Positions 23,391 through 60,821 of a stretch of 64,000 bases of DNA are shown here, piece after piece. How positions within the stretch are numbered: position 1 is the first letter of the stretch; each line of letters opens with the position of its first letter. The notes under the pieces were generated by a model. That model worked only from the letters and a program-made list of their open reading frames with translations. It made no database searches and was not told the DNA's origin. The DNA lies in contig CAWINB010000004.1 of NCBI GenBank assembly GCA_963837465.1, positions 793,078 to 857,077 of the forward strand. Reading direction: 5' to 3'. Made by a program: the position numbers and the translations under genes. The stretch comes from Candidatus Doudnabacteria bacterium. Lineage in GTDB: Bacteria > Patescibacteriota > Doudnabacteria > UBA920.

Positions 23391-24368
23391 ATGCCTTTAG
23401 TCAATAAGCAGATTGATTTATCAATCGTCATCCTCTCCTACAAATCCAAATCCCACCTGGAGGTTTTACTGCCGAGTGTTTTCGATAGTTTTGGGGTTGA
23501 TTTTTCAACTCCAAAACTATCGTCCGACGAAGCCTTGGCGAAGTCGGATGGGGATCGGGCGGCCAAGGCTCGCCCCTACACCGCCGAAATAATCATAGTA
23601 GACAACGACTCTCGCGACGGAACCGCGGAATGGATAAAAGCGGAATTCTGTGATTTTGACGGCCGTCAAAATCACAGAATGGTTTCCTTGATCGAGAATT
23701 CCAACAATGGTTTTTCCAAAGGAAATAATCTTGGAATAAAACAGGCCTCCGGCAAATATATTTTGCTGCTTAATCCCGACACCAGGCTTGAGCCCGGAAC
23801 TTTAAAAACTATGCTGGATTTTATGGACAGCCGGCCGGATGTCGGGATTTCCGGATGCAAACTTATTAAAGCCGACGGCAAGCTGGATGTAGCCTGCCGC
23901 AGAAGGTTTCCAAACCCATCCAATAGTTTTAAACGGCTGTTCCTGATGGACCGCATAGACTATAATTATTCCGATATCGATCAAGATAAGGAAATGGAAG
24001 TAGACAGCGTGGTCGGCGCGTTTATGCTTATCCGAAAATTAGCCCTGGATAAAACCGGCCTCTTGGACGAAATTTTTTTTATGTACGGTGAAGATTTGGA
24101 TTTGTGCTGGCGCTGCGAGGAAGCGGGGTTTAAAGTCTGGTATTATCCCAAAACTTTTATCCATCATTACAAAGGCGAGTCCAGCCGCAAAACGCCGTTT
24201 AAATCGTTAAAAGATTTCCATAACGCCATGTGGATTTTTTACAAAAAGCATTACGCTAAAAATTACTTCGTAATTTTTAATTGGCTGGTATGGTTGGGAA
24301 TTTATGCGCGGCTGGCCGTCTTGGTGATTATCAATAAATTCAAAGCCAATCCCAGTGTCAGCAAATAG
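23391..24368 (+). CDS. GT2 glycosyltransferase (rhamnosyltransferase-like) with in-frame palindromic inserts
   Basis: IVILSYKS...IIVDNDSRDGT...GFSKGNN GT2 motifs; extra segment DSFGVDFSTPKLSSDEALAKSDGDRAAKARP. Confidence 0.75.
   Translation: MPLVNKQIDLSIVILSYKSKSHLEVLLPSVFDSFGVDFSTPKLSSDEALAKSDGDRAAKARPYTAEIIIVDNDSRDGTAEWIKAEFCDFDGRQNHRMVSLIENSNNGFSKGNNLGIKQASGKYILLLNPDTRLEPGTLKTMLDFMDSRPDVGISGCKLIKADGKLDVACRRRFPNPSNSFKRLFLMDRIDYNYSDIDQDKEMEVDSVVGAFMLIRKLALDKTGLLDEIFFMYGEDLDLCWRCEEAGFKVWYYPKTFIHHYKGESSRKTPFKSLKDFHNAMWIFYKKHYAKNYFVIFNWLVWLGIYARLAVLVIINKFKANPSVSK
23645..23680. repeat. 36-bp perfect palindrome attctgtgattttgACGGCCGTcaaaatcacagaat, in frame within the GT2 CDS (P3 family)
   Basis: Direct reading; encodes EFCDFDGRQNHRM; related copies at 56846 and 60780 share the ACGGCCGT centre. 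Confidence 0.8.
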
Positions 24369-24406
24369 CGTGCCCGATTTTCTGGGCGTCCTTAAATCTC
24401 ATCAGC

Positions 24407-24427
24407 GCCGATAAATCGGCGCGCTAC
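24407..24427. promoter_or_regulatory. P4 motif GCCGATAAATCGGCGCGCTAC upstream of ctpA
   Basis: Identical 21-mer to 738..758. Confidence 0.5.
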
Positions 24428-24492
24428 GCAGGGTTTTGGTATTTTAAGCAAAAGCTGTTATAATTTAAAAACTTAAACTTTATATTTTATCT

Positions 24493-32880: not shown

Positions 32881-32960
32881 AGTTAAAAGTTATCAAGTTG
32901 CAAGTTATAAAGTAACCGCAACTCATACTTGATAACTTTCTACTTTTAACTTTATAACTA
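32881..32960 (+). promoter_or_regulatory. Nested inverted repeats in the rpsK-rpsD intergenic region (structured leader)
   Basis: aaaagttatcaag/cttgataactttt, gttaaaagt/acttttaac, agttataaagt/actttataact. Confidence 0.4.
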
Positions 32961-32964
32961 ATTT

Positions 32965-33573
32965 ATGAGATACACCGGACCAAAAGTAAAAAAAGCCAGA
33001 CGGCTTGGCATGGCCTTTACGGCCAAAGACGCCAAAATTTTGCAAAAGCGGGGTTTCCCGCCTGGCCAGCACGGCCAGAACCGGGTCAGGCTTTCCGAAT
33101 ACGGGACCCAGTTGCGCGAAAAGCAGAAAGCCAAAATCGCCTACGGAGTTATGGAAAGGCAGTTTGAAATTTATTTCAACAAGGCCTTGAAGCAGCCCGG
33201 CGTTACCGGCGATAATCTGCTCAAGCTTTTGGAAATGAGGCTGGACAACATTGTTTACCGTCTGGGTTTTGCCGAAACCCGCGCCCAGTCGCGGCAGCTG
33301 GTCAATCACGGTTTTTTTGAGGTCAACGGCAAAAAAGTCGACATTCCTTCTTACCAGGTCCGCTCCGGGGACTTAGTCGCCATCAGGGCTGTCAAGCAAA
33401 AAAAAGCCTACCTGGAAAAAATCAGGGAAAAGTTAAAGAATTTTAAAACCATGGACTGGCTGGAATTAAACGGCGGCAAGTTTTCCGGAAAAGTTTTAAG
33501 CTCGCCGCTGGTTGAAGGTCTTGAAAGCAATATCAACACCCAGCTTATAGTTGAGCATTACAGCAGAACATAA
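32965..33573 (+). CDS. rpsD: Ribosomal protein S4
   Basis: MRYTGPKVKKARRLG... Confidence 0.95.
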   Translation: MRYTGPKVKKARRLGMAFTAKDAKILQKRGFPPGQHGQNRVRLSEYGTQLREKQKAKIAYGVMERQFEIYFNKALKQPGVTGDNLLKLLEMRLDNIVYRLGFAETRAQSRQLVNHGFFEVNGKKVDIPSYQVRSGDLVAIRAVKQKKAYLEKIREKLKNFKTMDWLELNGGKFSGKVLSSPLVEGLESNINTQLIVEHYSRT

Positions 33574-33584
33574 TTAATAATAAT

Positions 33585-33647
33585 ATCCTTTATCCTTTAT
33601 CTTTAATCTTTTACCGGTTAAAGATTAAGGATTAAAGATAAAGGATT
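33585..33647. repeat. Heptamer run (ATCCTTT ATCCTTT ATCTTTA ATCTTTT) that is also the left arm of a palindrome around ACCGGT
   Basis: Direct reading in the rpsD-rpoA intergenic region. Confidence 0.6.
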
Positions 33648-33655
33648 CATCTATT

Positions 33656-34594
33656 ATGGAAGCCATCCCTCTGCCAAATCACGCCCATGTTACGGACCTG
33701 GGCGACAATAAATATAGTCTGGTTTTAGAGCCCCTTTATCCGGGTTATGGTGTTACTATTGGCAACGCCATGCGCAGGGTACTGCTTTCTTCCATGCCCG
33801 GCGCGGCAGTAACTTCCGTAAAAATTAAGTTCGTGGACCACGAATTTTCCACCATCCCCAATGTTAAGGAAGATGTCATTCAGATTATCCTGAACTTAAA
33901 ACAGCTTCGCCTGCAGAGTTTTAGCGGCGAGCCGGTTAAGCTGTCGTTAAAAGCAAAGGGAGAAAAAGTAGTGACCGCGGCCGACATAAAAGAAACCGAT
34001 CAAGTCCAGGTTATAAACAAAGGTTTGCATATTGCCACTTTGGACAACAAAAATTCCGATTTTGATATGGAGCTGACGATTGAACAGGGTCGCGGCTACG
34101 TGCCGGTTGAAGCCCGGGAAAACCGCAAGCAGGAAGTCGGCGTTATTGCCATAGACGCGATTTTTACTCCGGTAAAATCCGTCCATTTTGATGTTACCAA
34201 CGTCCGCGTGGGGCAACTGACCAACTTTGACCGTTTGGAAGTTGTTATGGAAACGGACGGCGGGTTAACCGGCCAGGAAGCGTCCGACATTGCCGCGCAC
34301 ATTTTGGTTGACCATTTCAGCATGGTTTTCCTTGGCGGTTTTGGCGCCGCGGAAACTCCAAAGCAAGCCGAGCAATCCGTTCCGGAAGCCCAGGCGCCGG
34401 AGGCCGCGCAAGTGGCCGGTCAGGAAAATGAAATAGAAGCTTCCGCCCTTTCCACCCGCGCCAAGAACGCGCTGGTAAAAAATAATATTACGACCATGGC
34501 CCAGCTTTCCGCCCTTACCAATGATCAGATTTCCAACTTAGGCGGCCTGGGAGATAAGACAATTAAGGAAATTACGGAATTTTTAGGAAGATAG
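33656..34594 (+). CDS. rpoA: DNA-directed RNA polymerase subunit alpha
   Basis: N-terminal dimerisation domain and C-terminal alpha-CTD (ALSTRAKNAL..). Confidence 0.95.
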   Translation: MEAIPLPNHAHVTDLGDNKYSLVLEPLYPGYGVTIGNAMRRVLLSSMPGAAVTSVKIKFVDHEFSTIPNVKEDVIQIILNLKQLRLQSFSGEPVKLSLKAKGEKVVTAADIKETDQVQVINKGLHIATLDNKNSDFDMELTIEQGRGYVPVEARENRKQEVGVIAIDAIFTPVKSVHFDVTNVRVGQLTNFDRLEVVMETDGGLTGQEASDIAAHILVDHFSMVFLGGFGAAETPKQAEQSVPEAQAPEAAQVAGQENEIEASALSTRAKNALVKNNITTMAQLSALTNDQISNLGGLGDKTIKEITEFLGR

Positions 34595-34602
34595 GTAACG
34601 GC

Positions 34603-34672
34603 TAATCAGTAAATCAGCTAATCAGTAATCAGTACTGATATGCTGACCAGCTGATTCGCTGACCAGCTGACA
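34603..34672. repeat. Tandem repeats (TAATCAG-like heptamers, then GCTGACCAGCTGA x2) between rpoA and rplQ
   Basis: Direct reading. Confidence 0.55.
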
Positions 34673-34675
34673 CAT

Positions 34676-35020
34676 ATGAGGCACAAAAAGAAGAAAAAAA
34701 TCGGCAAAGGCAATGACCACAGAAGGAAGCTTCTTCGGACTTTGGCTTCGTCCCTGATTTTATACGAGAAAATCCGGACCGGCTACGCCAACGGTAAAGC
34801 CGCGAAAAGTTATACTGAAAAAGCCATCACCATTTCCAAAACCGGCACGCTCCACGCCCGCAGACAGCTTTTATCCAAGCTTTCGCCAATGGCCGCCAAA
34901 AAAGCCATGGAGGTTTTGGGCCCAAAGTACATCGACCGCAAGGGCGGCTACACCAGACTGCTTAAGCTTAATAATCCCAAGGCCGGAGCATCCAAAGTGC
35001 TGTTAGAATTAGTAGAATAA
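34676..35020 (+). CDS. rplQ: Ribosomal protein L17
   Basis: MRHKKKKKIGKGNDHRRKLLR... Confidence 0.9.
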   Translation: MRHKKKKKIGKGNDHRRKLLRTLASSLILYEKIRTGYANGKAAKSYTEKAITISKTGTLHARRQLLSKLSPMAAKKAMEVLGPKYIDRKGGYTRLLKLNNPKAGASKVLLELVE

Positions 35021-35021
35021 A

Positions 35022-35102
35022 TTTACGAAGTACGAAATCAGTACGAACTTACGAATGGTTCGCATCCGATTCGTAAGTTCGTAAAAATTCGTACTTCGTA
35101 AA
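35022..35102. repeat. P1 palindromic element copy 4
   Basis: tttacgaagtacgaaatcagtacgaacttacgaa...ttcgtaagttcgtaaaaattcgtacttcgtaaa. Confidence 0.7.
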
Positions 35103-35108
35103 CTATAT

Positions 35109-35519
35109 ATGAAATCCCAAAGCATTACATTACCAAAGACAGTAAAACGCTCCTGGCACCAGGTGGATGTTTCAAAGCAATCTATGGGCCGCGTGGCCAC
35201 GGAAATTGCCAATCTGCTTCGCGGCAAGCACAAGCGCGACTTTACTCCTTATATGGATATGGGCGATTTTGTGGTTGCCGTTAACGCCGGATCGTTAAAA
35301 TTTACCGGCCGCAAAGTGGAACAGAAACAGTATTTCCGCCATTCCGGGTACTTGGGCGGACTTAAAAAGACTTCGCTGAAGAATTTACTGGAAAAAAAGC
35401 CGGAAGAAGTTTTAAAAAAAGCCGTCTTTAGCATGCTGGACGACGTTAAATTCCGCAAGTCAATGATGTCCAGACTGAAGATTGTAAAAGATGACAAACA
35501 TATTTACAAAATTGATTAA
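35109..35519 (+). CDS. rplM: Ribosomal protein L13
   Basis: WHQVDVSKQSMGRVATEIANLLRGKHK.. Confidence 0.95.
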   Translation: MKSQSITLPKTVKRSWHQVDVSKQSMGRVATEIANLLRGKHKRDFTPYMDMGDFVVAVNAGSLKFTGRKVEQKQYFRHSGYLGGLKKTSLKNLLEKKPEEVLKKAVFSMLDDVKFRKSMMSRLKIVKDDKHIYKID

Positions 35520-35547
35520 TTAAAATTTTTGAATTAAATAAAATTTT

Positions 35548-36189
35548 TTGATCGATCAATTTTACTTAATTTTGTCAATTTTACTTAATTATTTTATGCC
35601 TACAAAGACCCATAAAACTCCAGCCGAAGGCCATTCCGCCCCGGCCGCAAAACCCGCCGCTAAAGCTCCCCGCAAACCCAGGGCGGCCGCGGTAAAAAAG
35701 CCCGCTGCCCACAAAGCAGAGGAAGACGGTTTGGATATCTCCAAAGTTTCGGAATCAGCGGAAGCCGAGCACGAGGTTCCGGCCAAAGCCCACAGCGAAA
35801 AAGGCAGGTACATTTTTGCCACCGGCCGACGGAAAACCGCCATTGCCAATGTGCGTTTGTTTGAAGGTAAGGGCGATATGGTTGTCAACAAAAAACCTTT
35901 AAAGCAGTACTTTGCTTACAGTTTCCATTACGACGAAATTAGCCGTCCGTTTGAAGTAACCGGGCTTGGCGGCAAGCACTATTTTACCGCCCACGTAAAC
36001 GGCGGCGGCCCGCACGCCCAAGCCACAGCCCTCAGGCACGGCATCAGCATAGCCCTTGGCAAAACTTCCGAAGACGTCCGCAAAGTCCTGAAAAAGAACG
36101 GCTTCCTCACCCGCGACGACCGCAAAAAAGAACGCAAGAAACCAGGCCTTAAACGCGCCAGGCGTGCCGGACAGTGGGCGAAGCGTTAG
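35548..36189 (+). CDS. rpsI: Ribosomal protein S9 with an Ala/Lys/Pro-rich N-terminal extension; likely start 35596
   Basis: GRRKTAIANVRL...GGGPHAQATALRHGISIAL; the conserved leader motif ttaattattttATG ends at 35596. Confidence 0.9.
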   Translation: MIDQFYLILSILLNYFMPTKTHKTPAEGHSAPAAKPAAKAPRKPRAAAVKKPAAHKAEEDGLDISKVSESAEAEHEVPAKAHSEKGRYIFATGRRKTAIANVRLFEGKGDMVVNKKPLKQYFAYSFHYDEISRPFEVTGLGGKHYFTAHVNGGGPHAQATALRHGISIALGKTSEDVRKVLKKNGFLTRDDRKKERKKPGLKRARRAGQWAKR

Positions 36190-36200
36190 AAATTATATCA

Positions 36201-36228
36201 AACACCCTGTAAATACAGGGTGTTTTTT
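36201..36228 (+). terminator. Rho-independent terminator after rpsI
   Basis: aacaccctgtaaatacagggtgtttttt. Confidence 0.7.
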
Positions 36229-36430
36229 ATGTGATTAAAGAACCTCTGCTGCACTAAAAGTAACAAGTCGGGAAAGAAATCAGCGCGCTTAAACAACAGG
36301 CGGAAAATTGGATTAACCTTAACAACCAGCAAAAAAACCTGTTTAAGGACGAAGCCGATGCCTACTTTAAAAGTTACAAATACCTTGGTTTTACTTACAA
36401 ATATGCCTATGAATTTTTAGAACAAACTTT

Positions 36431-36541
36431 GGAGACGAGAAATCCGTCGAGGGTTCTATCAAGATTGGCGCTAAGGGCTTTATAAGCAAGCCCTTCACAG
36501 CAGAAAAAATACTTGCGGCACTGGGAAATGGCACCCTTTAA
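36431..36541 (+). pseudogene. Remnant of a response-regulator receiver domain (C-terminal ~36 aa)
   Basis: GDEKSVEGSIKIGAKGFISKPFTAEKILAALGNGTL* carries the KPF receiver motif; no intact upstream frame. Confidence 0.35.
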
Positions 36542-36757
36542 AGACATGACGGGGAAATGGAGGAAAATTATACGAGTAAACCGAAGATTCTACAAAAATT
36601 CGGCACGGCGGGCAGAGTGTAATTATCTGCCTTCCTTTCCGAGTTCATCAAAAAATTGGTGAATTGAGAAGGGGATATCGCTTGGTTTAATTTAAAAACG
36701 CCCGGCAGAACGATTTTATGCTATACTGTAGGAAATAATATAATTAAACTTAATTTT

Positions 36758-37536
36758 ATGGAATCAAATAATATTTTGCCAAAATGGTTAATAAATTGTT
36801 TGGGTGGTTTGCTGATACTTTTGGTGGCTTTGCTGGTTGTGCAAAAAGCTCAGGATTTGCATACGGCTTTTGCCAATAGTAAGCCAGCTAATACAATATC
36901 GGTTTCTGGTGAGGGTAAGGTTACCGCTACTCCGGATTTGGCTACTGTTACTATTGGTGTAATTTCGCAGGGCGTCGACCGTCGGCGGCCGTGCAGAGCC
37001 AGAATGATGATAAGGTAAATAAGGTTATTGCTTTTATTAAACAGCAGGGGATTGCGGACGCGGATGTTTCCACTTCCCAGTACAATATCCAGCCGCAGTA
37101 CGATTACACCAAGAGCCAGCCTGCAATTACCGGCTACCAGGTTAACCAAAGCGTGGTGGTTAAAGTACGCGGCGTAGATAAATCCCAAACAGTTTTAAAT
37201 GCTATTTTAGACGGCGCGGTAGGTAGCGGAGCCAACGAGATTGATGGTGTAGATTTGTCGGTGGACAACCCCGATGCCCTACAGGAACAGGCCCAGGAGC
37301 AGGCAATTTCCAATGCCAAACAAAAGGCTCAGGCGCTGGCCCAGGCCGCGGGTTTAACTTTGGGTAAAGTTGTTAGTGTTTCGGAAAATTCCGTAACTCC
37401 CGTTCAGCCGATGCCTTACGCCTTTAATTCCTCGCTGGCCATGGGAGCCGCTCCGGCCGCGGCTGTTGCCCCAAGCATCCAAACCGGCAGCCAGGAAATA
37501 GACGAGACAATGACGCTGACTTTTGAGATCAAATAA
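36758..37536 (+). pseudogene. SIMPL/DUF541 (BP26-like) periplasmic protein, frameshifted near 36975 (or a sequencing indel)
   Basis: ORFs 36758..37018 and 36991..37536 together give the SIMPL N-terminus (TISVSGEGKVTATPDLATVTIGV) and remainder (SAAVQSQNDDKVNKVIAFIKQQGI...) in different frames. Confidence 0.6.
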
Positions 37537-37640
37537 CATAATTCTATAGACAAGATCCGCCTAAGCCCTGCGCAAAGGGGGACGAGATTAAATAAATTTA
37601 AAGCAGAGACAAAGAAAGTAAACGGAAGGACACGGATATA

Positions 37641-37673
37641 AAAAATACCATGAGATTTTTCATGGTATTTTTT
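37641..37673. terminator. Bidirectional hairpin terminator
   Basis: aaaaataccatgagatttttcatggtatttttt. Confidence 0.55.
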
Positions 37674-37680
37674 ATGCTCC

Positions 37681-38085
37681 GGGCAAACTCATAAGCCGAA
37701 TTCTGTTTCTCTCCGCCTTCGCGTAAAGCTATGCGGATCAGCGCCGTAAAATAAATTACAGTTGCTGAATAATCATCTATCTAGCCCCGCCATTGCTGGC
37801 GGGATCGAGCAGCCTACCTAATTTGGCCTTGCACTCAAGTAAGGATTTAGCCGTTTCACCCTTCGGCTTCGCTCAGAGCCTCGCGGCCCCGGGTTTATAT
37901 GAAGGTTGATCCAAATTTTGGATCCCCGCGCCTTTCGGCGGCAGGCGTCACTGTTCGCACCTCGCGGATTACTCCGGACGGGGATTACCCGCTACCAATT
38001 TTGATAACTCTTAAGAGGTTATCAAACAAGTGTTCGGACTTTCCTACCCTTAAAATAAATTAAGGATCGATTATTCGGTTTGCCC
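37681..38085 (-). ncRNA. rnpB: RNase P RNA (bacterial type A)
   Basis: Reverse complement contains GGAAAGTCCGAACAC, GGTAGGCTGCTCGA, CTAGATAGATGA and ACAGAATTCGGCTTAT; P1 pairing GGGCAAAC/GTTTGCCC; no ORFs on either strand. Confidence 0.85.
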
Positions 38086-38111
38086 AAAGCCCATAAATAT
38101 TAGCAAAAAAG

Positions 38112-38141
38112 CTTGTTTTTGTCAACCTAAAATGGTATAAT
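38112..38141 (+). promoter_or_regulatory. Candidate promoter with extended -10 (TGGTATAAT)
   Basis: cttgtt...18nt...tggtataat. Confidence 0.45.
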
Positions 38142-38245
38142 AAAACCGCTGAATTCACGCTGAAGACTGCGACGTTGGTTATAACGCTGAATACGAATTT
38201 CAGCGACTGTTTAGCGTTAGAATCGGCATCATTTTAGCGGTTTTT
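38142..38245 (+). promoter_or_regulatory. Structured 5' leader of the WbaP-like gene (CGCTGAA repeats; terminator-like hairpin abutting the ATG)
   Basis: aaaaccgct...(cgctgaa x3, ttcagcg)...agcggtttttATG. Confidence 0.4.
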
Positions 38246-39682
38246 ATGAAGAAAACAGAGCTGATTTTTAACATTATATCCGTTCCCGTGGACGTTATTT
38301 CGCTTTTTTTGGCCGGCGTAGCGTCTTTTTATTTAAGGGAGCATTCCGTAAGCCTGGTCGGACCTATAGTTTACCGGTTGCAGCTGAGGGAATTTTTAAG
38401 CGTGGTCTATAAAATTGTGCCCGTCCTTGTTCTTATTTTCGCTCTGCTCGGTTTGTATAATTTAAGGGGCACGCGCAAATTTATCCCCGAATTCGGCCGG
38501 ATAATCGTCGGCACTTCCATGGGCTTGCTTATTGTGATTTTACTGTTCTTTTTCAACCAAAGCATTTTTCCTTCACGCTTTATCATCCTTGCCACCTGGG
38601 GTTTTGGAATTCTGTTTGTGGTTTTAGGGCGTCTGGCCTTAAAACAGGCGCAGATATTTTTATTCCGCCAAAATCTTGGATTGCACAAACTGGTTATTAT
38701 TAACGGCAATCCGGGCAGTCTGGAATTAATAGAACAGATTTTCAAAAACAGCAAGCACGGCTATAAAGTCATTGCCGAGCTCGATTATTCGCCGGCTGTT
38801 TTTGGCGGGCTGGAAAAGCTGTATCAGGAAAAAAAAGTTGATGAAATCCTCCAGGCCAATCCCGCTTTAAGCGATGACGTGAATTTAAAACTGGTGCAGT
38901 TCGCCAGGGGTAAAGGCTTAAAGTTCAGTTTTGTGCCGAATCTTTTTGAAGTCCAGAGAAATATCGTGGAAACCGACAACTTAAACGGCATCCCGCTAAT
39001 CAGTCTTAAGAATACGCCCCTGGACGGCTGGGGCAAAGTGGCCAAAAGGATACTGGATGTCCTGGCCAGCCTGGCGTGCCTGATTTTAACCTCCCCGGTT
39101 TTTTTGCTGGTCTATGTGGCCATAAAGATTGACTCAAAGGGAAAAGCTATTTATTCCGCCGCGCGGGGCGGAAACGGCAGGGACTTTAAATTTTACAAGT
39201 TCAGGAGCATGTACAGCCACCTGAGCATAGGCGAAAAGTACGGCGGCCGCACGGCTGAACAGATGCGCAAAGACTTGTGGCAAAAAAATGACCGCGGCGG
39301 CGCGGAAGCGCCGTTTTTAAAAATAAAAGACGACCCGCGCGTTACCAAAGTCGGGCGTTTTTTACGCCGGACCAAACTTGATGAAATACCGCAGTTCTGG
39401 AACGTGCTTAAGGGCGACATGAGCATGGTCGGACCGCGAGCCCATGTTTTGGACGAAGTCAAAAAGTACCGCGACAGATACCCGCGCATGTTCAGCATAA
39501 AGCCGGGCATAACCGGCCTTTCGCAAATATCCCAGTTTTCCTGGGCCGATTTGCCGTTCGAGGAAGAAATCCGCCTGAATACTTATTACATAGAAAACTG
39601 GTCTCTGTGGCTGGACGTAAAAATTCTCGCCCAAACTTTCTGGCTGCTGTTTTTTGATGTTGAGCCAAAGGATAATTATTAA
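38246..39682 (+). CDS. Polyprenyl-phosphate hexose-1-phosphate transferase (WbaP/CpsE-like priming glycosyltransferase)
   Basis: C-terminal bacterial sugar-transferase domain RILDVLASL...KFRSM...DEIPQFWNVLKGDMSMVGPR. Confidence 0.85.
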   Translation: MKKTELIFNIISVPVDVISLFLAGVASFYLREHSVSLVGPIVYRLQLREFLSVVYKIVPVLVLIFALLGLYNLRGTRKFIPEFGRIIVGTSMGLLIVILLFFFNQSIFPSRFIILATWGFGILFVVLGRLALKQAQIFLFRQNLGLHKLVIINGNPGSLELIEQIFKNSKHGYKVIAELDYSPAVFGGLEKLYQEKKVDEILQANPALSDDVNLKLVQFARGKGLKFSFVPNLFEVQRNIVETDNLNGIPLISLKNTPLDGWGKVAKRILDVLASLACLILTSPVFLLVYVAIKIDSKGKAIYSAARGGNGRDFKFYKFRSMYSHLSIGEKYGGRTAEQMRKDLWQKNDRGGAEAPFLKIKDDPRVTKVGRFLRRTKLDEIPQFWNVLKGDMSMVGPRAHVLDEVKKYRDRYPRMFSIKPGITGLSQISQFSWADLPFEEEIRLNTYYIENWSLWLDVKILAQTFWLLFFDVEPKDNY

Positions 39683-39684
39683 GC

Positions 39685-40854
39685 ATGATGACAAATTTCC
39701 AATTTCCAGTTTCCAATTTCAAAATCGCTTTGGCCCACGATTCGTTTACCCAGGACGGGGGAGCGGAAAGAGTGATGGAGGGTTTGCATGAGCTGTTTCC
39801 CCAAGCCCCTGTTTTTACTTTGGTGTTTGACCCAAAATTCAGGGAAAAATACAAAGATTGGGACATCCGCACTTCCAAATTGCAGACTTTATACCTGTCT
39901 TTGGGCAAGCTCCAGTACCTTTTGCCGCTTATTCCGTACGGAGTGGATTCCCTGGATTTTTCCGGTTTTGACGTTATAATTTCTTCCAGCTCCGGGTTCA
40001 TTAAAAATTTACGCCGTCCGAAAAACGCCTTGCATATAAATTACTGCCATACCCCGGCCCGGTTTTTGTGGAGCGATGCCAATTACGTAAACGAAGAAGT
40101 CAATCCGGTCTTTAGACCCGCGGCAAAATTTATACTAAACCGGATAAAGCTTTGGGATTTAAAGGGGGCAAAGCGGGTGGATTATTTTATCGCTAATTCA
40201 CACGAAGTCCAAAACAGGATTTCGCGATATTATCAGCGTACTAGTACGCTGATACATCCGTTTGTCGATATGGATTTTTGGAAAAACGTTCAAACCAGGC
40301 AAAATTATTTTTTGCTCGCCGGCAGGCTTCAGGCGCATAAAAATAATGAACTGATTATCCAGATTTTTAATGAACTTGACCTGCCGCTGCGTGTGGCGGG
40401 TACGGGGCGGCAGGAAAATTATTTAAAATCCATCGCCAAACCGAATATTAAGTTCTTAGGGCGCGTCAGCGACGAACAACTGCGGCAGGAATACAGCGGA
40501 GCTCTCGGCTTTATTTACCCCCAACTGGAAGATTTCGGCCTAATGCCCCTGGAAGCCGCCGCCTGCGGCACGGCCACCCTGGCTTACGGCAAAGGCGGAG
40601 CTTTGGAAACGGTGACTTCTGGGGTTACAGGAGAGTTTTTTGGTCCCGACGCAGTTAGCCCATTTATGGGCTGTGGAACTGAACAAACAGCCGATAAATT
40701 GGCTAACTACAAGGACCAAATCAAACAGCTCATCCTAAACTGGCAACCGCAAAAATATAAACCCGACCAACTGCAATCCCAGGCCGAAAAATTCAGCAAG
40801 GAAAAATTTAAGGAAAATATTTTAGAATTTATTAATTCATTAAAAATGAAATGA
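39685..40854 (+). CDS. GT4 glycosyltransferase (carries several dispersed repeat motifs in frame)
   Basis: GT-B fold; EDFGLMPLEAAACG motif; heptamer run at its 5' end, the 22-bp palindrome at 40232 and the P4-variant at 40688. Confidence 0.8.
   Translation: MMTNFQFPVSNFKIALAHDSFTQDGGAERVMEGLHELFPQAPVFTLVFDPKFREKYKDWDIRTSKLQTLYLSLGKLQYLLPLIPYGVDSLDFSGFDVIISSSSGFIKNLRRPKNALHINYCHTPARFLWSDANYVNEEVNPVFRPAAKFILNRIKLWDLKGAKRVDYFIANSHEVQNRISRYYQRTSTLIHPFVDMDFWKNVQTRQNYFLLAGRLQAHKNNELIIQIFNELDLPLRVAGTGRQENYLKSIAKPNIKFLGRVSDEQLRQEYSGALGFIYPQLEDFGLMPLEAAACGTATLAYGKGGALETVTSGVTGEFFGPDAVSPFMGCGTEQTADKLANYKDQIKQLILNWQPQKYKPDQLQSQAEKFSKEKFKENILEFINSLKMK
40232..40253. repeat. 22-bp perfect palindrome ATCAGCGTACTAGTACGCTGAT inside the GT4 CDS (P5 family)
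   Basis: Direct reading; encodes YQRTSTLIH; core shared with 49711..49728 and 49604..49629. Confidence 0.8.
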
Positions 40855-41246
40855 AAAATTGTATATTCTGTCAAATCGTGGCGGGAAAATCGCCAAATTA
40901 TAAGTTATATGAAGACAAAGATTTTTTGGCATTTTTGGACATTAATCCTATGAACTTTGGGCATTTTTTAATCATATCAAAGAAGCATTACAACTATATT
41001 TTTGATTTACCGGAACCCTTGTATTCTAAAATTTTTAAATTAACAAAAAAATTATCCAAGCCCTTAAAACTCGCAACCAAAGCAAAGCGGATTGGAATAG
41101 CTATTGAAGGGCTTGCAGTGCCTCATTTGCATATACATATGGTACCTTTGAACAATTTGTCAGATCTTGATCCAAATCGGGCAAAAAGAGCATTGGATAA
41201 AGAATTGAAGCGAACCCATAAAATGCTAAAAAAATATTTTAAATGA
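40851..41246 (+). CDS. HIT-family (histidine triad) nucleotide hydrolase/transferase
   Basis: HLHIHMVP histidine triad. Confidence 0.8.
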   Translation: MKNCIFCQIVAGKSPNYKLYEDKDFLAFLDINPMNFGHFLIISKKHYNYIFDLPEPLYSKIFKLTKKLSKPLKLATKAKRIGIAIEGLAVPHLHIHMVPLNNLSDLDPNRAKRALDKELKRTHKMLKKYFK

Positions 41247-42361: not shown

Positions 42362-42400
42362 AACCTATTTTAAAAATTAGGGGACAAATTTGTGGAAACG

Positions 42401-42489: not shown

Positions 42490-42546
42490 GTTATATATAA
42501 ACTGTCGGAATATATTTAAAACGAGTTCTTAATTTTATTTAATTCA

Positions 42547-49308: not shown

Positions 49309-49584
49309 TTACTTCTCCAGCATCTGCCTGAAACCGCCCTTTTTATTCATCAGTTCCCGCGAGCCGCGTGTTACAGTAGCCACGCTAACCTTAAGATTTT
49401 TGGCGATGTCCCTTTGGGGAACCTTTTGTTCCAGCTGTTTTACAATCTGCCAGCGCACAGCCAGGTCTTTATACTCGGCGGGGGACAGTAAATCGTACAA
49501 AAGCTCGTGCAACAAGGCTTTGCTTTTAGCCGCCTTAAACAACAAATTTTCCATCTCTACCCCGAATTTATAATCGTATTTCAT
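49309..49584 (-). CDS. TrpR-like YerC/YecD-family DNA-binding protein
   Basis: LLSPAEYKDLAVRWQIVKQL...RDIAKNLKVSVATVTRGSREL. Confidence 0.6.
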   Translation of the reverse strand: MKYDYKFGVEMENLLFKAAKSKALLHELLYDLLSPAEYKDLAVRWQIVKQLEQKVPQRDIAKNLKVSVATVTRGSRELMNKKGGFRQMLEK

Positions 49585-49603: not shown

Positions 49604-49629
49604 ATGTTACTGTACTAGTACAGTAACAT
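49604..49629. promoter_or_regulatory. 26-bp perfect palindrome ATGTTACTGTACTAGTACAGTAACAT, 20 nt upstream of the TrpR-like gene (candidate operator)
   Basis: Direct reading. Confidence 0.5.
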
Positions 49630-49710: not shown

Positions 49711-49728
49711 TAGCGTACTAGTACGCTA
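49711..49728. promoter_or_regulatory. 18-bp perfect palindrome TAGCGTACTAGTACGCTA (same GTACTAGTAC core)
   Basis: Direct reading; immediately followed by TTGACG...TAGTAT promoter-like boxes. Confidence 0.45.
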
Positions 49729-50958: not shown

Positions 50959-51113
50959 TACAATAGTTCTGAGTTTTGGCATTTTAACAGCCGATAAATC
51001 GGCTAACTACATCGGGCTAATCCACTTTACAAACCCTTCTTTCGGACAGCTTTTATTTATGAGTGGATTCTGTTATAATATCAACATGTAATTTTAATTA
51101 GATTATCCAGATT

Positions 51114-51153
51114 GCCGATAAATACCGTAGGACGACACAAGTCGGCGCGCTAC
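51114..51153. promoter_or_regulatory. P4 motif split by a 19-nt insert (GCCGATAAAT[accgtaggacgacacaagt]CGGCGCGCTAC) in the secA leader
   Basis: Alignment to 738..758 and 24407..24427; preceded by TGTTATAAT extended -10 at 51071-51079. Confidence 0.5.
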
Positions 51154-51156
51154 ACT

Positions 51157-53905
51157 ATGTCATTTTTATCCAAAATTTTCAGCGGACAAAACAATTCCCT
51201 CGCCAAATTTTCCGGGGAGCTGGACGCGGTTAATGGTTTTAAGGAAGATGTGGAAAAACTTTCCCAGGAAGAGATTAAAGCGGAAATTTCAAATTTCAAA
51301 TTGGAAATTTCAAAGCTCGAATCGGACAGGGAAATTTTCGAGCAGCTGCAAAAAATCGCGTCGCGGGTTTTTGCCTTGACCAGGGAAGCGGCCAAAAGAA
51401 GCATCGGGCAGGAGCACTACGATGTGCAGCTGGCCGGAGGTTTTGTTTTGGCCGAAGGCAAGATCGCGGAAATGAAGACCGGCGAGGGGAAAACCTTAAC
51501 CGCTACTTTGCCTTTGGCTCTGTACGCTTTAGCCAGCAAAGGCGCGCACCTGGTTACGGTTAACGATTACCTGGCCCGCTGGCAGGCCAGCTTAATGGGT
51601 CCGGTTTACCGCTACCTTGGTTTGAGCGTGGCTTCCATCCAGCACGAAGCCAGTTTTTTATATGATCCTGACTACAAACCCGAGCAGGAAGAAATAGATA
51701 AGCTGGAAGGTGAAACCCAGGGGCTGATTATGGACGTTAAGCATATGCGCCCCATTTCCAGGCGGGAAGCTTACGCCGCGGAGATAACTTACGGCACCAA
51801 CAACGAATACGGTTTTGATTACCTGCGCGACAATATGGCCCAGCACCAAAACCAAATTACCCAGCGCGGACTTTTGTTTGCCATTGTGGACGAGGTAGAC
51901 AGCATATTGATAGATGAAGCGCGCACGCCGCTCATTATCAGCGCTCCGGACACCGAGCCGACCAGCAAGTATTACGACTTCGCGCGTTTGGTGGACGGCC
52001 TGGATGAAGCTACGGATTACACCGTGGATGAAAAACACAAAGCCGCCAGCTTAACCGACTCCGGCATCAACAAAATAGAAGCGTTGCTGAAAATCCCGAA
52101 TATTTATGATACCAGCAAAGGCGTTACAACCATCCACCATATTGAACAGGCTTTGCGCTCAAGAACTTTGTTTAAAAAGGACCGCGACTATGTGGTGCGC
52201 GAGGGTGAAATAATCATCGTCGATGAATTTACCGGCAGGCTGATGTTCGGCAGGCGCTACAGCGAAGGTTTGCACCAGGCCATAGAAGCCAAGGAAAATG
52301 TTAAAATTCAGCAGGAAAGCAAAACACTGGCTACAATAACTTTCCAAAACCTTTTTCGGCTTTATAAAAGACTTTCCGGCATGACGGGCACGGCCAAAAC
52401 CGAAGAAGAAGAATTTTTTAAAATTTATCAGCTGACCGTGCGGCAAATCCCGACCCACCGCCCCATGGTGCGCGAGGATTTGTCGGACTTGGTTTATAAA
52501 ACCGAAGACGCCAAATTCAGCGCCATAGCGCGCGAGGTCAAACAGCGGAACCAAAAGGGCCAGCCTGTGCTTATTGGCACCGTCAGCATCGCCAAAAACG
52601 AAATGCTGGCCGAGGTTTTAAAAAAAGAAGGGCTGAAGTTTGAAATTTTAAACGCCAAAAACCACGAACGCGAAGCGCACATTATTTCCCAGGCCGGACG
52701 CTTTGGGCAAATTACTCTGGCCACCAACATTGCCGGACGCGGCGTGGATATTTTACTTGGCGGCAATCCTGTTGATGATGAAGAAGCCGAAAAAGTCAAG
52801 CAGGCCGGCGGTTTGCATATTTTGGGCACGGAAAGGCACGAGTCGCGCCGCATAGACAACCAGTTGCGCGGCCGCGCCGGCCGCCAGGGCGACCCGGGAA
52901 GTTCGCAATTTTTTGTTTCCATGGAAGACGACCTGATGCGTTTGTTCGGCGGCGAGCGCATGAAAAATTTAATGACCAGGCTGGGCTTGCCGGACGAGCA
53001 GCCGATTGAGGCGGGGATGGTTTCCAAATCCATCGAAAGCGCGCAAAAAAGAATAGAAGGCCTGAACTTTGACACCAGAAAACACGTATTGGAATTTGAT
53101 GATGTGCTCAACCATCAAAGAAACGTAATTTACAAAAGGCGGCGGGGTTATCTGGCGGGGAACAATACCAAAGATGAAGATGGCAATGACATCAGCCTTT
53201 CCAATGAAATTTTAGAGATGATTCGCCAGGAAATCGGCGGCATTGTAAGCTACAACCTCAACCTGCTGGATGAATACGGCGGCAAAAAAGAGGACTGGGA
53301 CAATTTATTTAAAAATGCCAACATAATTATTCCGGTAACTCCGGAGCTGGTAAAACAGATTAAGGAAGAAACCGTTAACGCCGCTGATCGTGAATTCGCC
53401 GTCAGCGATGCCTTGTACAACGCGGCTAAAAAATTATGGGACCAAAAAGAACAGGAAATGGGCAAAGATGTGTTTGAAGGCGCGCAAAGGTTTATTGCCC
53501 TGCAGTCACTGGACCAGTTATGGATGGAGCATTTGGATACATATGGACCATTTGCGCGACTCGGTAAGGCTGCGCGGTTACGGCCAGCGGGACCCGCTGG
53601 TGGAGTATAAAAAAGAAGGTCACGGTATGTTCCAGCTGCTGCTTAAGGAGATTAGCAAACAAATTGTTTCCAGTATTTTTCACATCACAGCGCAAAGAGC
53701 TCCGCTTCCTTCGGTAATACCGGCCAATTTGGTAACAAATTTATCCGATGGCTCCTCGGGCCAAAATTCGTCGCCTGCCGAAAATATCGGCCGCAACGAG
53801 CCGTGCCCCTGCGGCTCCGGAAAAAAGTGGAAGAAATGCGGAATGTTAAACACGCCGGAGCATTTAGCAAAGATAAAAACAAAATCCCTAATCCCTAATC
53901 CCTAA
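51157..53905 (+). CDS. secA: Preprotein translocase ATPase SecA, +1 frameshift near 53542 (probably a sequencing indel), SEC-C zinc motif at the C-terminus
   Basis: DEAD motor domains; ORF 51112..53610 ends ...WMEHLDTY, then frame 2 continues MDHLRDSVRLRGYGQRDPLVEYKKEG...CPCGSGKKWKKCG. Confidence 0.85.
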
Positions 53906-56845: not shown

Positions 56846-56883
56846 TATTACGCAATTCTGACGGCCGTCAAAATCGTGTAATA
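56846..56883. terminator. Hairpin with an ACGGCCGT centre (P3 family, deletion-variant of 23645..23680)
   Basis: tattacgcaattctgACGGCCGTcaaaatcgtgtaata. Confidence 0.5.
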
Positions 56884-57458: not shown

Positions 57459-57467
57459 TAATATCTT

Positions 57468-60066
57468 ATGAAAAAAATATCCGTACGATTGCCAGCTTAC
57501 ATCAAGCCCGAGCGTTATAGATTAGCAATTAAACCCGATTTTGAAGGTTTTATTTTTAGCGGCGAAGAGAGTATAGATTTGGTTTTGGGAAAATCCGTAA
57601 GCAGTATAACTTTGCACTCCAAGGAGTTGGAAATTTTTGATGTTGAATTCCAAATTTCTAATTCCTCCGCCAAAAGCGGATCGGCCGTCGGCGGAAAATT
57701 TCCAACCCAAAAGCATCATATACAATGAAAAAGCCGAAACCGCGACATTTACTTTTAGCAAAAAATTACCCAAAGGCAGGGGAGTGTTAAGTCTTAAATT
57801 TAAGGGGCTTTTGACGGATAAGTTGAAGGGTTTTTATTTAAGCAAGTACAAACACCAAGGCAAAGAAAAACATATTGCCACTACCCAGTTTGAGCCAACA
57901 GATGCCAGGCGCGCTTTTCCGTGCTTTGATGAGCCCGCGCAAAAAGCCGTGTTTGAGGTTAGCTTAAAAACCCCAAAAAATTTAACCGCGATATCCAACA
58001 CCATAGAAACAGAAATTTTGGAGCACGAAGGCGGCTACAAGGTGGTAAATTTTGCTCCGAGCCCAAAAATGTCAACTTACCTGCTTGCTTTTATAGTTGG
58101 CGACTTTGAGTTTATTCAAGCGCGTTCCAAAGACAATGTTTTGGTCCGCGTTTTTGTCACGCCCGGAAAAAAATCCCAAGGACAATTCGCTCTGAACACG
58201 GCCATAAGGGCTCTGGAATTTTACAATAATTACTTTGACATACCTTATCCGCTGCCGGTTTTGGACCTTATAGCGCTGCCGGATTTTGCCTCGGCCGCCA
58301 TGGAAAACTGGGGTGCCATCACCTATCGCGAGACCGCCCTTTTGGTGGATGAAAAGCAGACATCAGCGGCCAACAAGCAGTGGGTGGCCATTGTCATTGC
58401 CCACGAAATTGCACACCAATGGTTTGGCAATCTGGTAACAATGGATTGGTGGACCGATTTGTGGCTTAACGAGGGCTTTGCCTCGTATATGGAATACCTG
58501 GCCACGGACAAACTTTTCCCCAAGTGGCAAATGTGGGAGCAGTACGTTTCGGGCAGGCAAGCCGTGGCGCTTCGGCTGGACGCGCTCGGCACCAGTCACC
58601 CCATAGAAATAACCGTGCGTCATCCCGATGAAATTTCCGAAATTTTTGACCAGGTCAGTTACGCCAAAGGCTCCGTGGTAATTCGTATGCTGGCCAATTA
58701 TTTGGGAGAAACTGTTTTCCGCGACGGCCTAAGGCACTATTTAAAAAAGCACAGCTACGGCAATACGGTTACCGAAGATTTATGGAAGTCCTTTGAAGCT
58801 GTTTCCAAAAAACCGGTAAGTAAAATGATGAAGTTGTGGACCAAAAAAACCGGATATCCCCTGATATCCGCCGTTCGCGAGGGCCAGCAAACCAAACTGT
58901 CCCAGCAAAGGTTTTTTTCCAGCAGCCTGTCCGGGAAAAAAAATCGGGACAACACGGTTTGGAAAGTTCCGCTGGAAATTTTAAACTACAAAGGCCAAAA
59001 AAATAAATTTTTGCTGGACAAAAAGTCAGGCCTCATCGGGACAAACGGCAAAGGCTGGCTAAAAATCAATCACGGGGAAACCGCGTTGGTCAGGGTTAAA
59101 TATTCCGCCGGCATGCTTAATGAAATCAAGTCGGCAATCGCTTCCCGAAAATTGGGCCCGATTGACCGCCTGGGCATTATCCGAGACGCTTTCGGGCTGG
59201 CCGAAGCCGGTCATATGGCTACTGTGGAAGCTTTGGAACTGGCCAAATTTTACGGCCGGGAAGAAGCATTGCCGGTCTGGGAAGAAATTTCTTCGGGCGT
59301 AGCTTTGGCCGGCGGTTTTTATAAGGACGAAAAATGGTATAAGCATTTCCGGAACTACGCCCTGGGACTTCACAGGCCGCTGGCGCTTAAGCTGGGCTGG
59401 GAAAAAAAGAAAAACGAAAGTCATGCAACCGGGCTTTTGCGCGGCCTGGCGCTTTTTCAGGCGGGAAATTACGGTGATACCGCCGTAATAAAAAAGGCGC
59501 AAGCTCTTTTTGCCGCTCACTTAAAAGGCAGGCAAATATCTCCGGATGTCCGCGGCGTGGTCTATAATCTGGTGGCCCAAAACGGGGGATTAAAACAATT
59601 CAGCCAAATGGTCGGGCTTTACAAAAAAGCAAGCCAGCACGAAGAACAGGATAGGATTGGCCGGGCACTGGGAAGTTTTCAGGATAAAACAGTCCTTAAA
59701 AAAGTTTTGGAATTTGCCTTAAGCAAAAATGTGCGGGCGCAGGACAGCCCGAGCGTATTTATAGGCGTGGGCAGGAATTTTTACGGCGCGGATTTGGCCT
59801 GGGAGTTTTTAAAAAATAACTGGGATGAAATTTTAAAGCGCTATAATGTTGGCGGCCATCTTTTGGAGTGGTTTATTGTTCCGTTCGGCCGTTTTTATAC
59901 CACAGCCCAAGCCAAAGATTTTAAAAATTTCTTTAAAAAACACCCAACTCCCAACGTGTCCCGCGCCATCAGCCAGGTTCTGGAAAAAATTTATTCCAAC
60001 GAGGCGTGGATAAAACGGGACGGGAAGAATGTCGGTAAATGGCTTGAGGAGACAATTAACAATTGA
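57468..60066 (+). CDS. pepN: M1-family aminopeptidase N, frameshift in the N-terminal region at the A4 run 57695-57698 (likely indel error)
   Basis: HEIAHQWFGN...NEGFASY zinc motifs; ORFs 57468..57728 and 57637..60066 are joined by removing one A in ggcggaaaatttcc. Confidence 0.85.
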
Positions 60067-60780
60067 CGATCAACAATTGACCTTCGGCCTTTTCCAGCGG
60101 CATAAAAGCTTAAGCTATGGGATTTCGGAAAAATCCGACGGCTCTATGAAGCTGCAGGGTTCGGATGTTATGGCTGCAAAAAATCGGAGTAAGTTTTTTA
60201 AGTCCCATGACATCCGTACCGGACAAAATATCACGCCGCTGCAAAGCCATTCCGCCACTATCGCCAAAATTACCTCTGATGATAATCATCAGCCAAGCGC
60301 CGATGGCTTAATTACGGACGTTCCGGACATAAGCCTAACCGTAACCGTTGCCGACTGCTTTCCGGTTTATTTTTACAATCCTAAAACTTCTGCCATTGGG
60401 CTGGCTCATTGCGGCTGGCGGGGGATTGTCGCCGGTCTTCCATCCAAGATGGCGGGGCGATGATCTCGGCGCTAAATTGTCCCGCCGATGATATCCTCGC
60501 AGGCATTGGCCCTGGCATAAGAGCTTGCCACTTTGAAATCAAGCCCGATGTTTTGGAAGAGTTTAACGATTACCCGCTCCATATTAATTTTGTCGGCCAG
60601 AAAATTTTTGTTGACTTGCCCGCAATCATCACATCCCAACTAACAGCCGCGGGAGTTCTCAAACAGAACATCGCCGATTCCGGCCACTGTACCTACTGCC
60701 AAAAAGACAAATACTTTTCCTTCCGCCGCGACCATCCAAAAAAAGTCCGAGCCATGGTTGCTTATATTGGTTTAATTTAA
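60029..60780 (+). CDS. pgeF: PgeF/YfiH (DUF152) purine nucleoside phosphorylase / peptidoglycan editing factor, frameshift at the G4 run 60454-60457
   Basis: VADCFPVYF...GLAHCGWRG and C.YC...YFSFRRD motifs; adding one G restores ...KMAGAMISALNC... Confidence 0.7.
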
Positions 60781-60821
60781 GCTGTTACTATAACGCACGG
60801 CCGTGCGTTATAGTAACAGCT
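60780..60821. repeat. 42-bp perfect palindrome agctgttactataacgcACGGCCGTgcgttatagtaacagct (P3 family)
   Basis: Direct reading, immediately after the pgeF stop. Confidence 0.8.

Follow-up and report, generated by a model that had tools for sequence, protein, structure and literature searches.

CGGCCG-centred palindromes in and beside genes of a Doudnabacteria genome: long residence, arm covariation and possible maintenance by template switching

To our knowledge, perfect palindromes within working bacterial genes are rare, because protein and DNA symmetry compete for the same bases. Such a case is found in a stretch of 64,000 nucleotides from a Candidatus Doudnabacteria bacterium (Patescibacteriota; GCA_963837465.1, contig CAWINB010000004.1, positions 793,078 to 857,077), the whole of which is called the window in the following. 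A GT2 glycosyltransferase gene carries here, in frame, a perfect palindrome of 36 bp, one of three window copies of a family designated P3. A preliminary description of the window had interpreted this palindrome as an insertion of the Rickettsia type. Comparison with relatives agrees with that reading in so far as the encoded segment is extra, in frame and restricted to a lineage, but the insertion is not recent, as the palindrome is orthologous in at least nine species, with covarying arms and an invariant core. A 36-bp palindrome kept at one codon-exact position while most of its arm positions have changed would represent a clean natural example of DNA-level concerted evolution.

Position, shape and orthologues of the P3 palindromes

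The features required first are these:
23391-24368, plus strand: GT2 glycosyltransferase gene 2, which carries P3 copy 1 and the hypervariable sites A (residues ~32-62) and B (residues 87-97)
23645-23680, plus strand: P3 copy 1, a 36-bp perfect palindrome with centre ACGGCCGT, in frame in GT2 gene 2
56846-56883, no strand: P3 copy 2, imperfect, between the NUDIX stop codon (56844) and the Ham1/RdgB start (56895)
60780-60821, no strand: P3 copy 3, a 42-bp perfect palindrome (21+21) without spacer, centre ACGGCCGT

All three copies were confirmed at the coordinates of the preliminary description. Copy 1 reads ATTCTGTGATTTTGACGGCCGTCAAAATCACAGAAT, 18+18 perfectly paired bases without a spacer inside the GT2 open reading frame (ORF) 23391-24368. 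In copy 2 the ACGGCCGT centre extends to 10 pairs with 2 mismatches, and the 22-nt P3 fragment is enclosed by an outer 9-bp inverted repeat, GTATTACGC/GTGTAATAC. These 22 nt, AATTCTG plus ACGGCCGTCAAAATC, are common to copies 1 and 2 in an alignment that needs an 8-nt gap; the chance of such sharing, given the four ACGGCCGT sites in the window, is by our estimate ~1e-7, which points to possible copying between unlinked sites. Copy 3 had been placed directly after pgeF; it does abut a stop codon, beginning at the final base of that of ORF 60409-60780, but this ORF is only the 3' fragment of a pgeF split into two overlapping ORFs. It lies upstream of a promoter-like site (60905-60932) that precedes secD. 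Three of the four ACGGCCGT occurrences in the window are thus palindrome centres, while the fourth, at 63990, is non-palindromic. With two of the three copies extragenic and one coding, the density is 3 per 64 kb. CGGCCG-centred palindromes also occur at non-orthologous places in relatives (positions 3271-3312 of locus L003 and 9527-9560 of locus L001), so that P3 can be upheld as a family, as had been proposed; its members have no more than the 6-8 bp core in common, with the pair of copies 1 and 2 as the exception. The start tetranucleotides of the copies (ATTC, AGCT, CCCT, GTTT) reveal no common end motif, and neither a target-site duplication nor a conserved terminal motif was seen at the P3 copies.

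That a 36-bp palindrome within a gene is statistically extraordinary is borne out by the numbers. Perfect hairpins with a stem of at least 10 bp and a loop of at most 8 nt number 16 in the window, several with stems of 16-22 bp, where 30 third-order Markov shuffles of the window average 1.4, and single-stranded DNA folding gives z-scores of -6.2 at 23645, -2.2 at 56846 and -8.3 at 60780. An Rfam scan of the window found RNase P only, with no match at any palindrome. The candidate explanation that P3 represents plain intrinsic terminators was dropped: the terminator scan of the window flagged none of the copies, they are without T tail, and long palindromes in this clade follow ordinary terminators directly on their 3' side (10700-10794 in the window, 3186-3284 in L001).

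Copy 1 encodes residues E85-M97, EFCDFDGRQNHRM, of a protein whose best matches are Patescibacteria, some labelled Doudnabacteria. Its homologues span 268 to 382 aa owing to a few hypervariable sites, among them a site C present in relatives. In the orthologue alignment that the preliminary description had proposed as a check, the P3-encoded segment is an extra, lineage-restricted one in a variable loop, and many homologues are without it. An AlphaFold2 model of the protein (mean per-residue confidence, pLDDT, 89) places E85-M97 as a surface loop of lower confidence between a helix (78-86) and a strand (98-103); the lowest-confidence internal blocks of the model are residues 41-60, the lowest of all, in site A, and 91-100 within site B. 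Because the reading frame is open in all copies, translation of the palindrome into a loop that the protein tolerates is most likely. Translational bypass of the palindrome was ruled out, the frame being kept without a stop codon in any copy. The left arm starts in Glu-Phe codons (GAATTC) that align to an EFPxV motif of distant homologues; therefore the palindrome is not simply a foreign block of 36 bp, and at least its arm ends are native. An origin of the core from an ancestral Pro-Ala-Val codon run (CCGGCCGTT) was also considered; such a run was met in L108 only, in a different frame, and was treated as a coincidence.

Syntenic DNA of related genomes and metagenomes was compared at site B, relatives contributing about 250 kb to the analysis as a whole. 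The matches listed in the contig scan were mostly GT2 genes of other phyla, with about seven useful Patescibacteria loci among them, and the search for relatives of the window at strain level found none. In the loop that joins the DGTxEW helix to the LxxIxN strand, a CGGCCG-centred palindrome is present in eight further orthologues (L081/L088, L083, L084, L085, L086, L087, L094/L096 and L099), with an open frame throughout and at 55-66% protein identity. Three of the nine carriers illustrate that the arms are largely unlike between species yet self-complementary:
Window: ATTCTGTGATTTTGA + CGGCCG + TCAAAATCACAGAAT
L081: GGAGAGCTTTTTTCG + CGGCCG + CGAAAAAAGCTCTCC
L087: GGTGATGTTTTCTCA + CGGCCG + TGAGAAAACATCACC

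The nine copies align without gaps, so that 18 arm pairs in nine sequences provide 162 cells, of which 90.7% are Watson-Crick paired. Fifteen of the 18 pairs have changed on both sides, the three invariant pairs are those of the core, and none varies on one side only; neither 500 shuffles (0/500) nor any slid register matched these values. The 15 mismatches are GG, CC, CA, TT, TC, GA, AC, AA and AG; a G-T pair occurs in none of the 162 cells. CGGCCG is constant in all nine copies, even in the decaying ones of L085 and L086, and the columns beside it are partly conserved as a T run followed by an A run. The preliminary description had reasoned that orthologues with the same peptide segments and no palindromic DNA would make the symmetry coincidental codon choice; the opposite was observed, different peptides and palindromic DNA in the carriers.

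The remaining orthologues have unrelated short repeats at site B, or nothing. In L001 (10172-10280) and L089 (806-890), P3 is absent and two runs of 7-nt repeats, (ACGAATT)n and (CAATCCG)n, face each other; on the sense strand they would pair with A-C mismatches, to which G-U pairs on the antisense strand correspond. In a neighbour-joining tree that is poorly resolved at depth, P3 carriers are scattered; L099 has P3 and its close relative L103 (81.8% nucleotide identity) is without, and the arms of L099 are similar to those of L084 and the window. Scattered carriers and this likeness of arms are therefore read as an old element with several later losses or replacements, and the site-B sequences together point to an element that has long been resident and whose arms have evolved in concert.

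In a stem selected as RNA, some G-U pairs would normally be expected, and we know of no way in which palindromes with zero spacer are usable as RNA hairpins. Strict Watson-Crick symmetry combined with a spacer of zero length belongs to the DNA duplex, or to strand-to-strand copying. Perfect inverted repeats whose stem measures 15 bp or more have a density of 75.8/Mb in the ingroup (316 kb) and of 6.8/Mb in other loci (1.76 Mb), the comparison loci being GT2 loci of other phyla obtained in the same way, and 27 of the 38 ingroup repeats have loops of 0-1 nt against 15 of 55 elsewhere; the clade makes or tolerates spacer-less palindromes about ten times more than comparably sampled bacteria. In a recent survey the commonest spacer in bacteria was 4 nt (PMC13155455). 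A count of perfect against near-perfect repeats was not used as evidence, since its score penalised mismatches and favoured perfect repeats.

Arm-to-arm copying as the maintaining process

The explanation put forward here, with belief and doubt about evenly balanced, is that template switching at the level of DNA extends short palindromic cores and keeps them perfect, and that they survive in protein loops which tolerate them. P3 would then consist of spacer-less DNA palindromes built on the short self-complementary core CGGCCG, and the copy inside the gene would have resided for long in a permissive surface loop, translated within the protein. A mutation in one arm would be either reverted or copied as reverse complement into the other arm by DNA polymerase template switching in replication or repair, a process called quasipalindrome correction. 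Template switching would also lengthen a short core by overwriting one flank with the reverse complement of the other, short palindromic cores acting as seeds. Such palindromes, which would have no selected function, would persist where they do little harm, that is between genes, right after stop codons and in variable glycosyltransferase loops. The excess in this clade may, as we suggest, result from weak processing of hairpins and 3' ends.

Two changes of the templated type can be polarised. The first concerns site B itself, where the left arm of L087 has changed from GAGC to GATG and now matches the already-changed right arm, L083 representing the mismatched intermediate and the outgroup L081 the older matched pair. 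In the 8.6 kb L083/L087 alignment this is the sole substitution cluster that creates a reverse complement, and both controls gave 0. The second was found in a GT4 glycosyltransferase gene of the window, in a further palindrome family centred on GTACTAGTAC that the preliminary description did not list:
40231-40254, plus strand: coding palindrome TATCAGCGTACTAGTACGCTGATA, 24-bp perfect, in the GT4 gene, encoding YQRTSTLI

This palindrome was placed by homologue alignment, alignments to PDB matches stopping short of its region, and aligns gap-free to the conserved segment YYNRDSEIIYP; it is therefore not an insertion. The GTACTAGTAC core stands at the same codons in the relatives L169 and L170, and the left flank TATCAGC is common to the window and L169. 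The right flank is ACAGTAGTG in both L169 and L170 and ACGCTGATA in the window, the exact reverse complement of TATCAGC. Five clustered substitutions within 7 nt, at unchanged length, have thus turned a core of 10-12 bp into a palindrome of 24 bp. The marks by which template switching is recognised, multi-base reverse-complement conversions, Watson-Crick-only pairing and events without length change, are accordingly present at P3 and the GT4 site, and the two polarised changes, the covariation and the zero spacers together support DNA-level arm-to-arm copying as the maintaining force.

Processes of this kind have precedents. Template switching is, according to the abstracts of two studies, a published mechanism that creates and maintains perfect inverted repeats in bacteria and in RNA genes (PMC5941160, PMC8794818), and it has been proposed for the coding palindromes of Nematomorpha mitochondria (PMC6649704). 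The quasipalindrome correction and conserved perfect inverted repeats of Proteobacteria, as presented in those abstracts, constitute the closest mechanism: a multi-base change remakes one arm as the exact reverse complement of its partner, the perfect stems contain Watson-Crick pairs only, and perfect repeats are conserved over evolutionary time. In contrast, the stems reported here are longer, show a roughly ten-fold clade-specific excess with 0-1 nt spacers dominant, and lie in part in coding sequence, a location which the abstracts do not describe (PMC5941160, PMC8794818). The closest analogue of P3 itself is the Nematomorpha system, in which perfect inverted repeats within functional protein-coding genes are translated and are gained or lost between species, their perfection is apparently actively maintained, and arm-to-arm conversion by template switching has been discussed (PMC6649704). 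Different from that system, the palindromes are here bacterial (Patescibacteria), measure 24-46 bp instead of up to 284 bp, are spacer-less with an invariant core and, with the GT4 copy as an exception, are found mostly in variable loops and not in conserved parts of the protein. A literature search for coding palindromes in Patescibacteria gave nothing specific, which is not proof of absence.

On the other hand, several points weigh against template switching as the whole explanation. It leaves the constancy of the six central bases unexplained while every other arm pair varies. The arm sequence that copies 1 and 2 have in common at unlinked loci needs distant copying, which local correction does not provide. 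One templated event only was recovered in the single close genome pair compared. As the genomes compared at the GT4 site are far apart, the change there could have arisen from several point substitutions under selection for pairing. Finally, persistence at a single site across 55-66% protein identity could reflect selection for function.

If the excess of palindromes does reflect missing hairpin or 3'-end processing in reduced genomes, the palindrome load could mark the DNA-repair capacity of uncultured bacteria. Such palindromes could also supply new protein loop sequence; they give rise to odd low-complexity peptides in annotated Patescibacteria proteins, and can mimic selected RNA structures in covariation tests.

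Mobile DNA, binding proteins and RNA hairpins as alternatives

It is possible, although rather unlikely, that P3 and the other cassettes are small mobile palindromic elements akin to REP, Rickettsia palindromic or miniature inverted-repeat transposable elements (MITEs), which would enter spots prone to form hairpins, gene loops among them, and be spread by a transposase encoded elsewhere. The 22 nt common to copies 1 and 2 at unlinked loci would be readily understood in this manner, as would the behaviour of further hairpins in the two GT2 genes:
21923-22969, plus strand: GT2 glycosyltransferase gene 1, with three perfect hairpins
22171-22196, plus strand: hairpin in GT2 gene 1 with an 11-bp perfect stem and a 4-nt loop, inside an insertion with the peptide NLTPSLSSKGEGAS
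22337-22381, plus strand: F1 hairpin, 21-bp perfect stem and 3-nt loop, in frame in GT2 gene 1, encoding DTRGILLMQKDSPCV
23486-23521, plus strand: site A hairpin of GT2 gene 2, 36 nt with a 16-bp stem
23523-23548, plus strand: F2 element TCCGACGAAGCCTTGGCGAAGTCGGA, in site A of GT2 gene 2

The hairpin at 22171-22196, noticed already in the preliminary description, is real, and its segment is missing from most orthologues. The second hairpin claimed for GT2 gene 2, at 23488-23517, likewise exists, but its extent is larger, 23486-23521 when one G-T pair is included; the 21-bp stem at 22337-22381 had not been listed. In both GT2 genes, hairpin segments besides P3 thus also represent sequence that most orthologues do not have inserted. 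F1 has the form CACAAGGGGAATCCTTGTGC-N-GCACAAGGATTCCCCTTGTG and is orthologous, with compensatory changes, in GT2 gene 1 of L003, L081, L085, L087 and L091, while L083 has an F1 copy just 3' of the stop codon of GT2 gene 2. F2 is found in site A in the window and L083, in site B and in opposite orientation in L090, and elsewhere in L002 and L091. F1 thus appears within one gene and behind another, and F2 at different sites, in different genes and in both orientations.

A close view of turnover is afforded by L083 and L087, with an identity of 88.6% over BLAST matches and 84.7% over the whole 8.6-kb global alignment. Their sites A and C hold unrelated cassettes, GT2 gene 1 of L087 has gained 138 nt in frame, and a 22-nt indel between ACAAGG repeats deletes half of F1. 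L083 carries at 4957-5120 an extra segment of 164 nt with long inverted repeats, flanked by a repeated 11-mer, TTTGGTAAAGC. Since cassettes, gains and indels differ to this extent despite 88.6% identity, the glycosyltransferase loops are, on sequence grounds, hot spots. The TTTGGTAAAGC 11-mer at the edges of the L083 segment resembles a target-site duplication, and L087 shows at 2697-2840 a palindromic insertion of 144 nt that L083 is without. Both segments look like MITE-type mobile elements of this clade, in which truly mobile palindromic DNA may therefore exist. More generally, sites A, B and C of GT2 gene 2, the loops of GT2 gene 1 and the GT4 interdomain linker contain species-specific short cassettes, among them hairpins, heptad or octamer tandem repeats and low-complexity peptides (...SDEAIS...LAMT, ...RRHSE...EESQ).

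P3 itself fits less well with mobility. One pair excepted, its copies share the core alone; signs of insertion at their ends are missing, as described above; the site-B copy is vertically inherited with covarying arms and overlaps the conserved Glu-Phe codons; the GT4 palindrome arose without an insertion; and neither a transposase nor a RAYT gene is among the 46 window ORFs scanned. P3 was also compared with known families. Rickettsia palindromic elements (RPEs) are of ~100-150 bp, with copies recognisably alike in sequence. They have reportedly been studied, by Ogata and colleagues in 2000, as in-frame palindromic DNA in genes with the peptide at the protein surface. P3 resembles them as in-frame palindromic DNA in a gene with its peptide in a surface loop, but differs in its length of 36, about 38 and 42 bp and in that mainly a 6 bp core is common to the copies (64 kb searched). 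RPEs lose repeat identity with time, whereas the arms of P3 stay complementary during sequence turnover (PMC6649704). REP elements are extragenic, usually high-copy and of related sequence, with a conserved GTAG or CGTC end tag (PMC3733652, PMC8266576). With the REP/RAYT system P3 has in common palindromes of 20-40 bp, several copies after genes and a dispersed family; it lacks a GTAG/CGTC end tag and possesses a conserved centre instead. The explanations are not fully exclusive, as arrival by insertion could have been followed by preservation of perfection through template switching.

Equally unlikely, by our estimate, is that P3 serves as binding site, an operator or other cis-element, of a dimeric protein that reads CGGCCG with T-rich and A-rich flanks, the long arms being a by-product of the clade's extension tendency. 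Such a protein would account for a core that is constant in the nine orthologous copies and present in four non-orthologous ones, and for the partly conserved T run and A run next to it. The window also provides a precedent in the GTACTAGTAC family:
49309-49584, minus strand: TrpR/YerC-family repressor gene, 91 aa (PF01371, E 5.8e-20)
49604-49629, no strand: 26-bp perfect palindrome with centre GTACTAGTAC, 20 nt upstream of the start of the TrpR-family gene, a probable operator
49711-49728, no strand: 18-bp perfect palindrome TAGCGTACTAGTACGCTA, 127 nt upstream of the TrpR-family gene, a probable second operator
Relatives: GTACTAGTAC sites at 6658 and 15979 in L169 and at 10521, 20623 and 20870 in L170

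Only 14 CTAG tetranucleotides occur in the window; four of them lie within TACTAGTA, and three of those four centre palindromes. GTACTAGTAC sites are situated upstream of the TrpR-family gene also in L169 and L170, hence in three genomes in all, and the GTACTAGTAC core includes the ACTAGT half-site of CGAACTAGTTAACTAGTACGCA, the E. coli trp operator sequence (PMC11748629). This half-site and the location just upstream of a PF01371 gene in three genomes constitute the likeness to the TrpR system, which differs in that the E. coli operator is a double site and a single GTACTAGTAC palindrome is seen here, with one conserved site inside the GT4 coding sequence and, in the window genome, unique arms extended so as to give perfect palindromes of 18-26 bp. 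The two upstream palindromes are probable (auto-)operators of the TrpR-type repressor, and conservation of the GTACTAGTAC core inside the GT4 coding sequence in three genomes hints that the repressor may also act on the glycan operon. For a group in which hardly any regulons are known, a putative TrpR-type operator conserved inside a glycosyltransferase coding sequence offers a lead on regulation that can be tested.

For P3, several points speak against a binding protein. No regulator gene adjoins any copy, and the position of the copies relative to promoters is inconsistent. At the one comparable orthologous intergenic place the palindrome is CGGCCG-centred in L003 but CCGG-centred in L001, with unrelated arms. 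CGGCCG itself occurs 63 times in the window, mostly outside a palindromic context; the non-orthologous copies were found through a search for CGGCCG, which makes their common core partly circular; and the in-gene core encodes Gly-Arg at a turn, itself possibly constrained. Nor did the possibility that CGGCCG is a restriction-modification target, which the preliminary description had named as a check, find support: with these 63 occurrences it is missing from the 12 hexamer palindromes that a maximal-order Markov model ranks as most depleted, and no methylase, nuclease or transposase Pfam family was found among the 46 window ORFs scanned.

A bolder version, which we consider a long shot, holds that CGGCCG palindromes are read by a protein particular to the lineage, be it a regulator or a structure-specific DNA enzyme, that P3 in the GT2 gene, in common with the TrpR-type site in the GT4 gene, is a working cis-element within coding sequence by which the clade controls or diversifies its envelope glycan genes, and that action at the core seeds palindrome growth.

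That the palindromes are RNA hairpins (RNase III sites, 3' stabilisers or attenuators) selected to tune glycosyltransferase expression is improbable: although intergenic copies lie 0-2 nt past stop codons, structures are strongly stable, position is conserved with compensatory arm changes, and seven of the eight in-gene hairpins with a stem of at least 10 bp fall in GT2 gene 1, GT2 gene 2 or the GT4 gene (the eighth in a subtilase gene), the absence of G-U pairs from all 162 cells has, in a rough calculation of ours, p ~1e-5 if ~7% G-U are expected, the zero-nucleotide spacers that predominate in the clade are a property of duplex symmetry and not of RNA, Rfam is empty at every copy, and long palindromes come after ordinary terminators rather than in their place.

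Assembly, neighbouring genes and further hairpins

Assembly artefacts can be discounted as the source of the palindromes. Over window positions 32887-42574, an interval that covers none of the three P3 copies, the independent Logan assembly L166 shows 99.97% identity and reproduces the palindromes at 36200, 37638 and 40231; orthologous palindromes are also present in unrelated NCBI, ENA and JGI assemblies. No Logan contig was found for the GT2 gene with the 36-bp palindrome. Two long hairpins outside the glycosyltransferase genes deserve mention in this context:
2551-2585, no strand: perfect hairpin of 35 nt, 17-bp stem and 1-nt loop, between convergent genes
10750-10794, no strand: perfect hairpin of 45 nt, 22-bp stem and 1-nt loop, right after a terminator-like hairpin with T tail

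The short-read Logan contig L168 stops at ~2579, inside the first of these hairpins, and long palindromes seem to break short-read assemblies; a practical consequence is that they can end short-read contigs.

Another hairpin, at 37638-37675, has a 16-bp perfect stem with A/T-rich ends and directly adjoins the RNase P RNA gene (37676-38086, minus strand) at its 3' end; it is probably the terminator of this gene. An analogous hairpin of 18 bp is seen in L170 at 7933-7970.

The window otherwise represents ordinary core genome. Besides rhamnose-pathway genes it encodes a flippase, a Wzy_C protein and glycosyltransferases of the GT2 and GT4 types, several in number, and further carries AlaRS, ribosomal proteins, RNase P RNA, Mur ligases, SecA and SecDF; a tRNA scan of the window found none. 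The two ORFs into which pgeF (PF02578) is split, 60029-60463 and 60409-60780, cover profile positions 2-128 and 131-229, and the split indicates a frameshift near a G-run at ~60420-60460, which could reflect a pseudogene or an assembly indel error. Equally, secA appears frameshifted, its ORF 51112-53610 (832 aa) ending within the SecA_SW domain, the remainder of which lies together with the SEC-C motif in the overlapping ORF 53390-53905. Two broken genes of essential type suggest indel errors in the assembly.

With respect to short palindromes, mixed tetranucleotides are strongly depleted in the window (CTAG as counted above, TCGA 46, GTAC 96, ACGT 98, CATG 98, GATC 99), and those of GC or AT only are abundant (CCGG 480, GGCC 431, AATT 640). 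Upstream of the flippase gene, ORF 16246-16689 gives a weak PemK/MazF-like match (E 7e-4), and in the region equivalent to this ORF both L001 and L003 contain long perfect palindromes.

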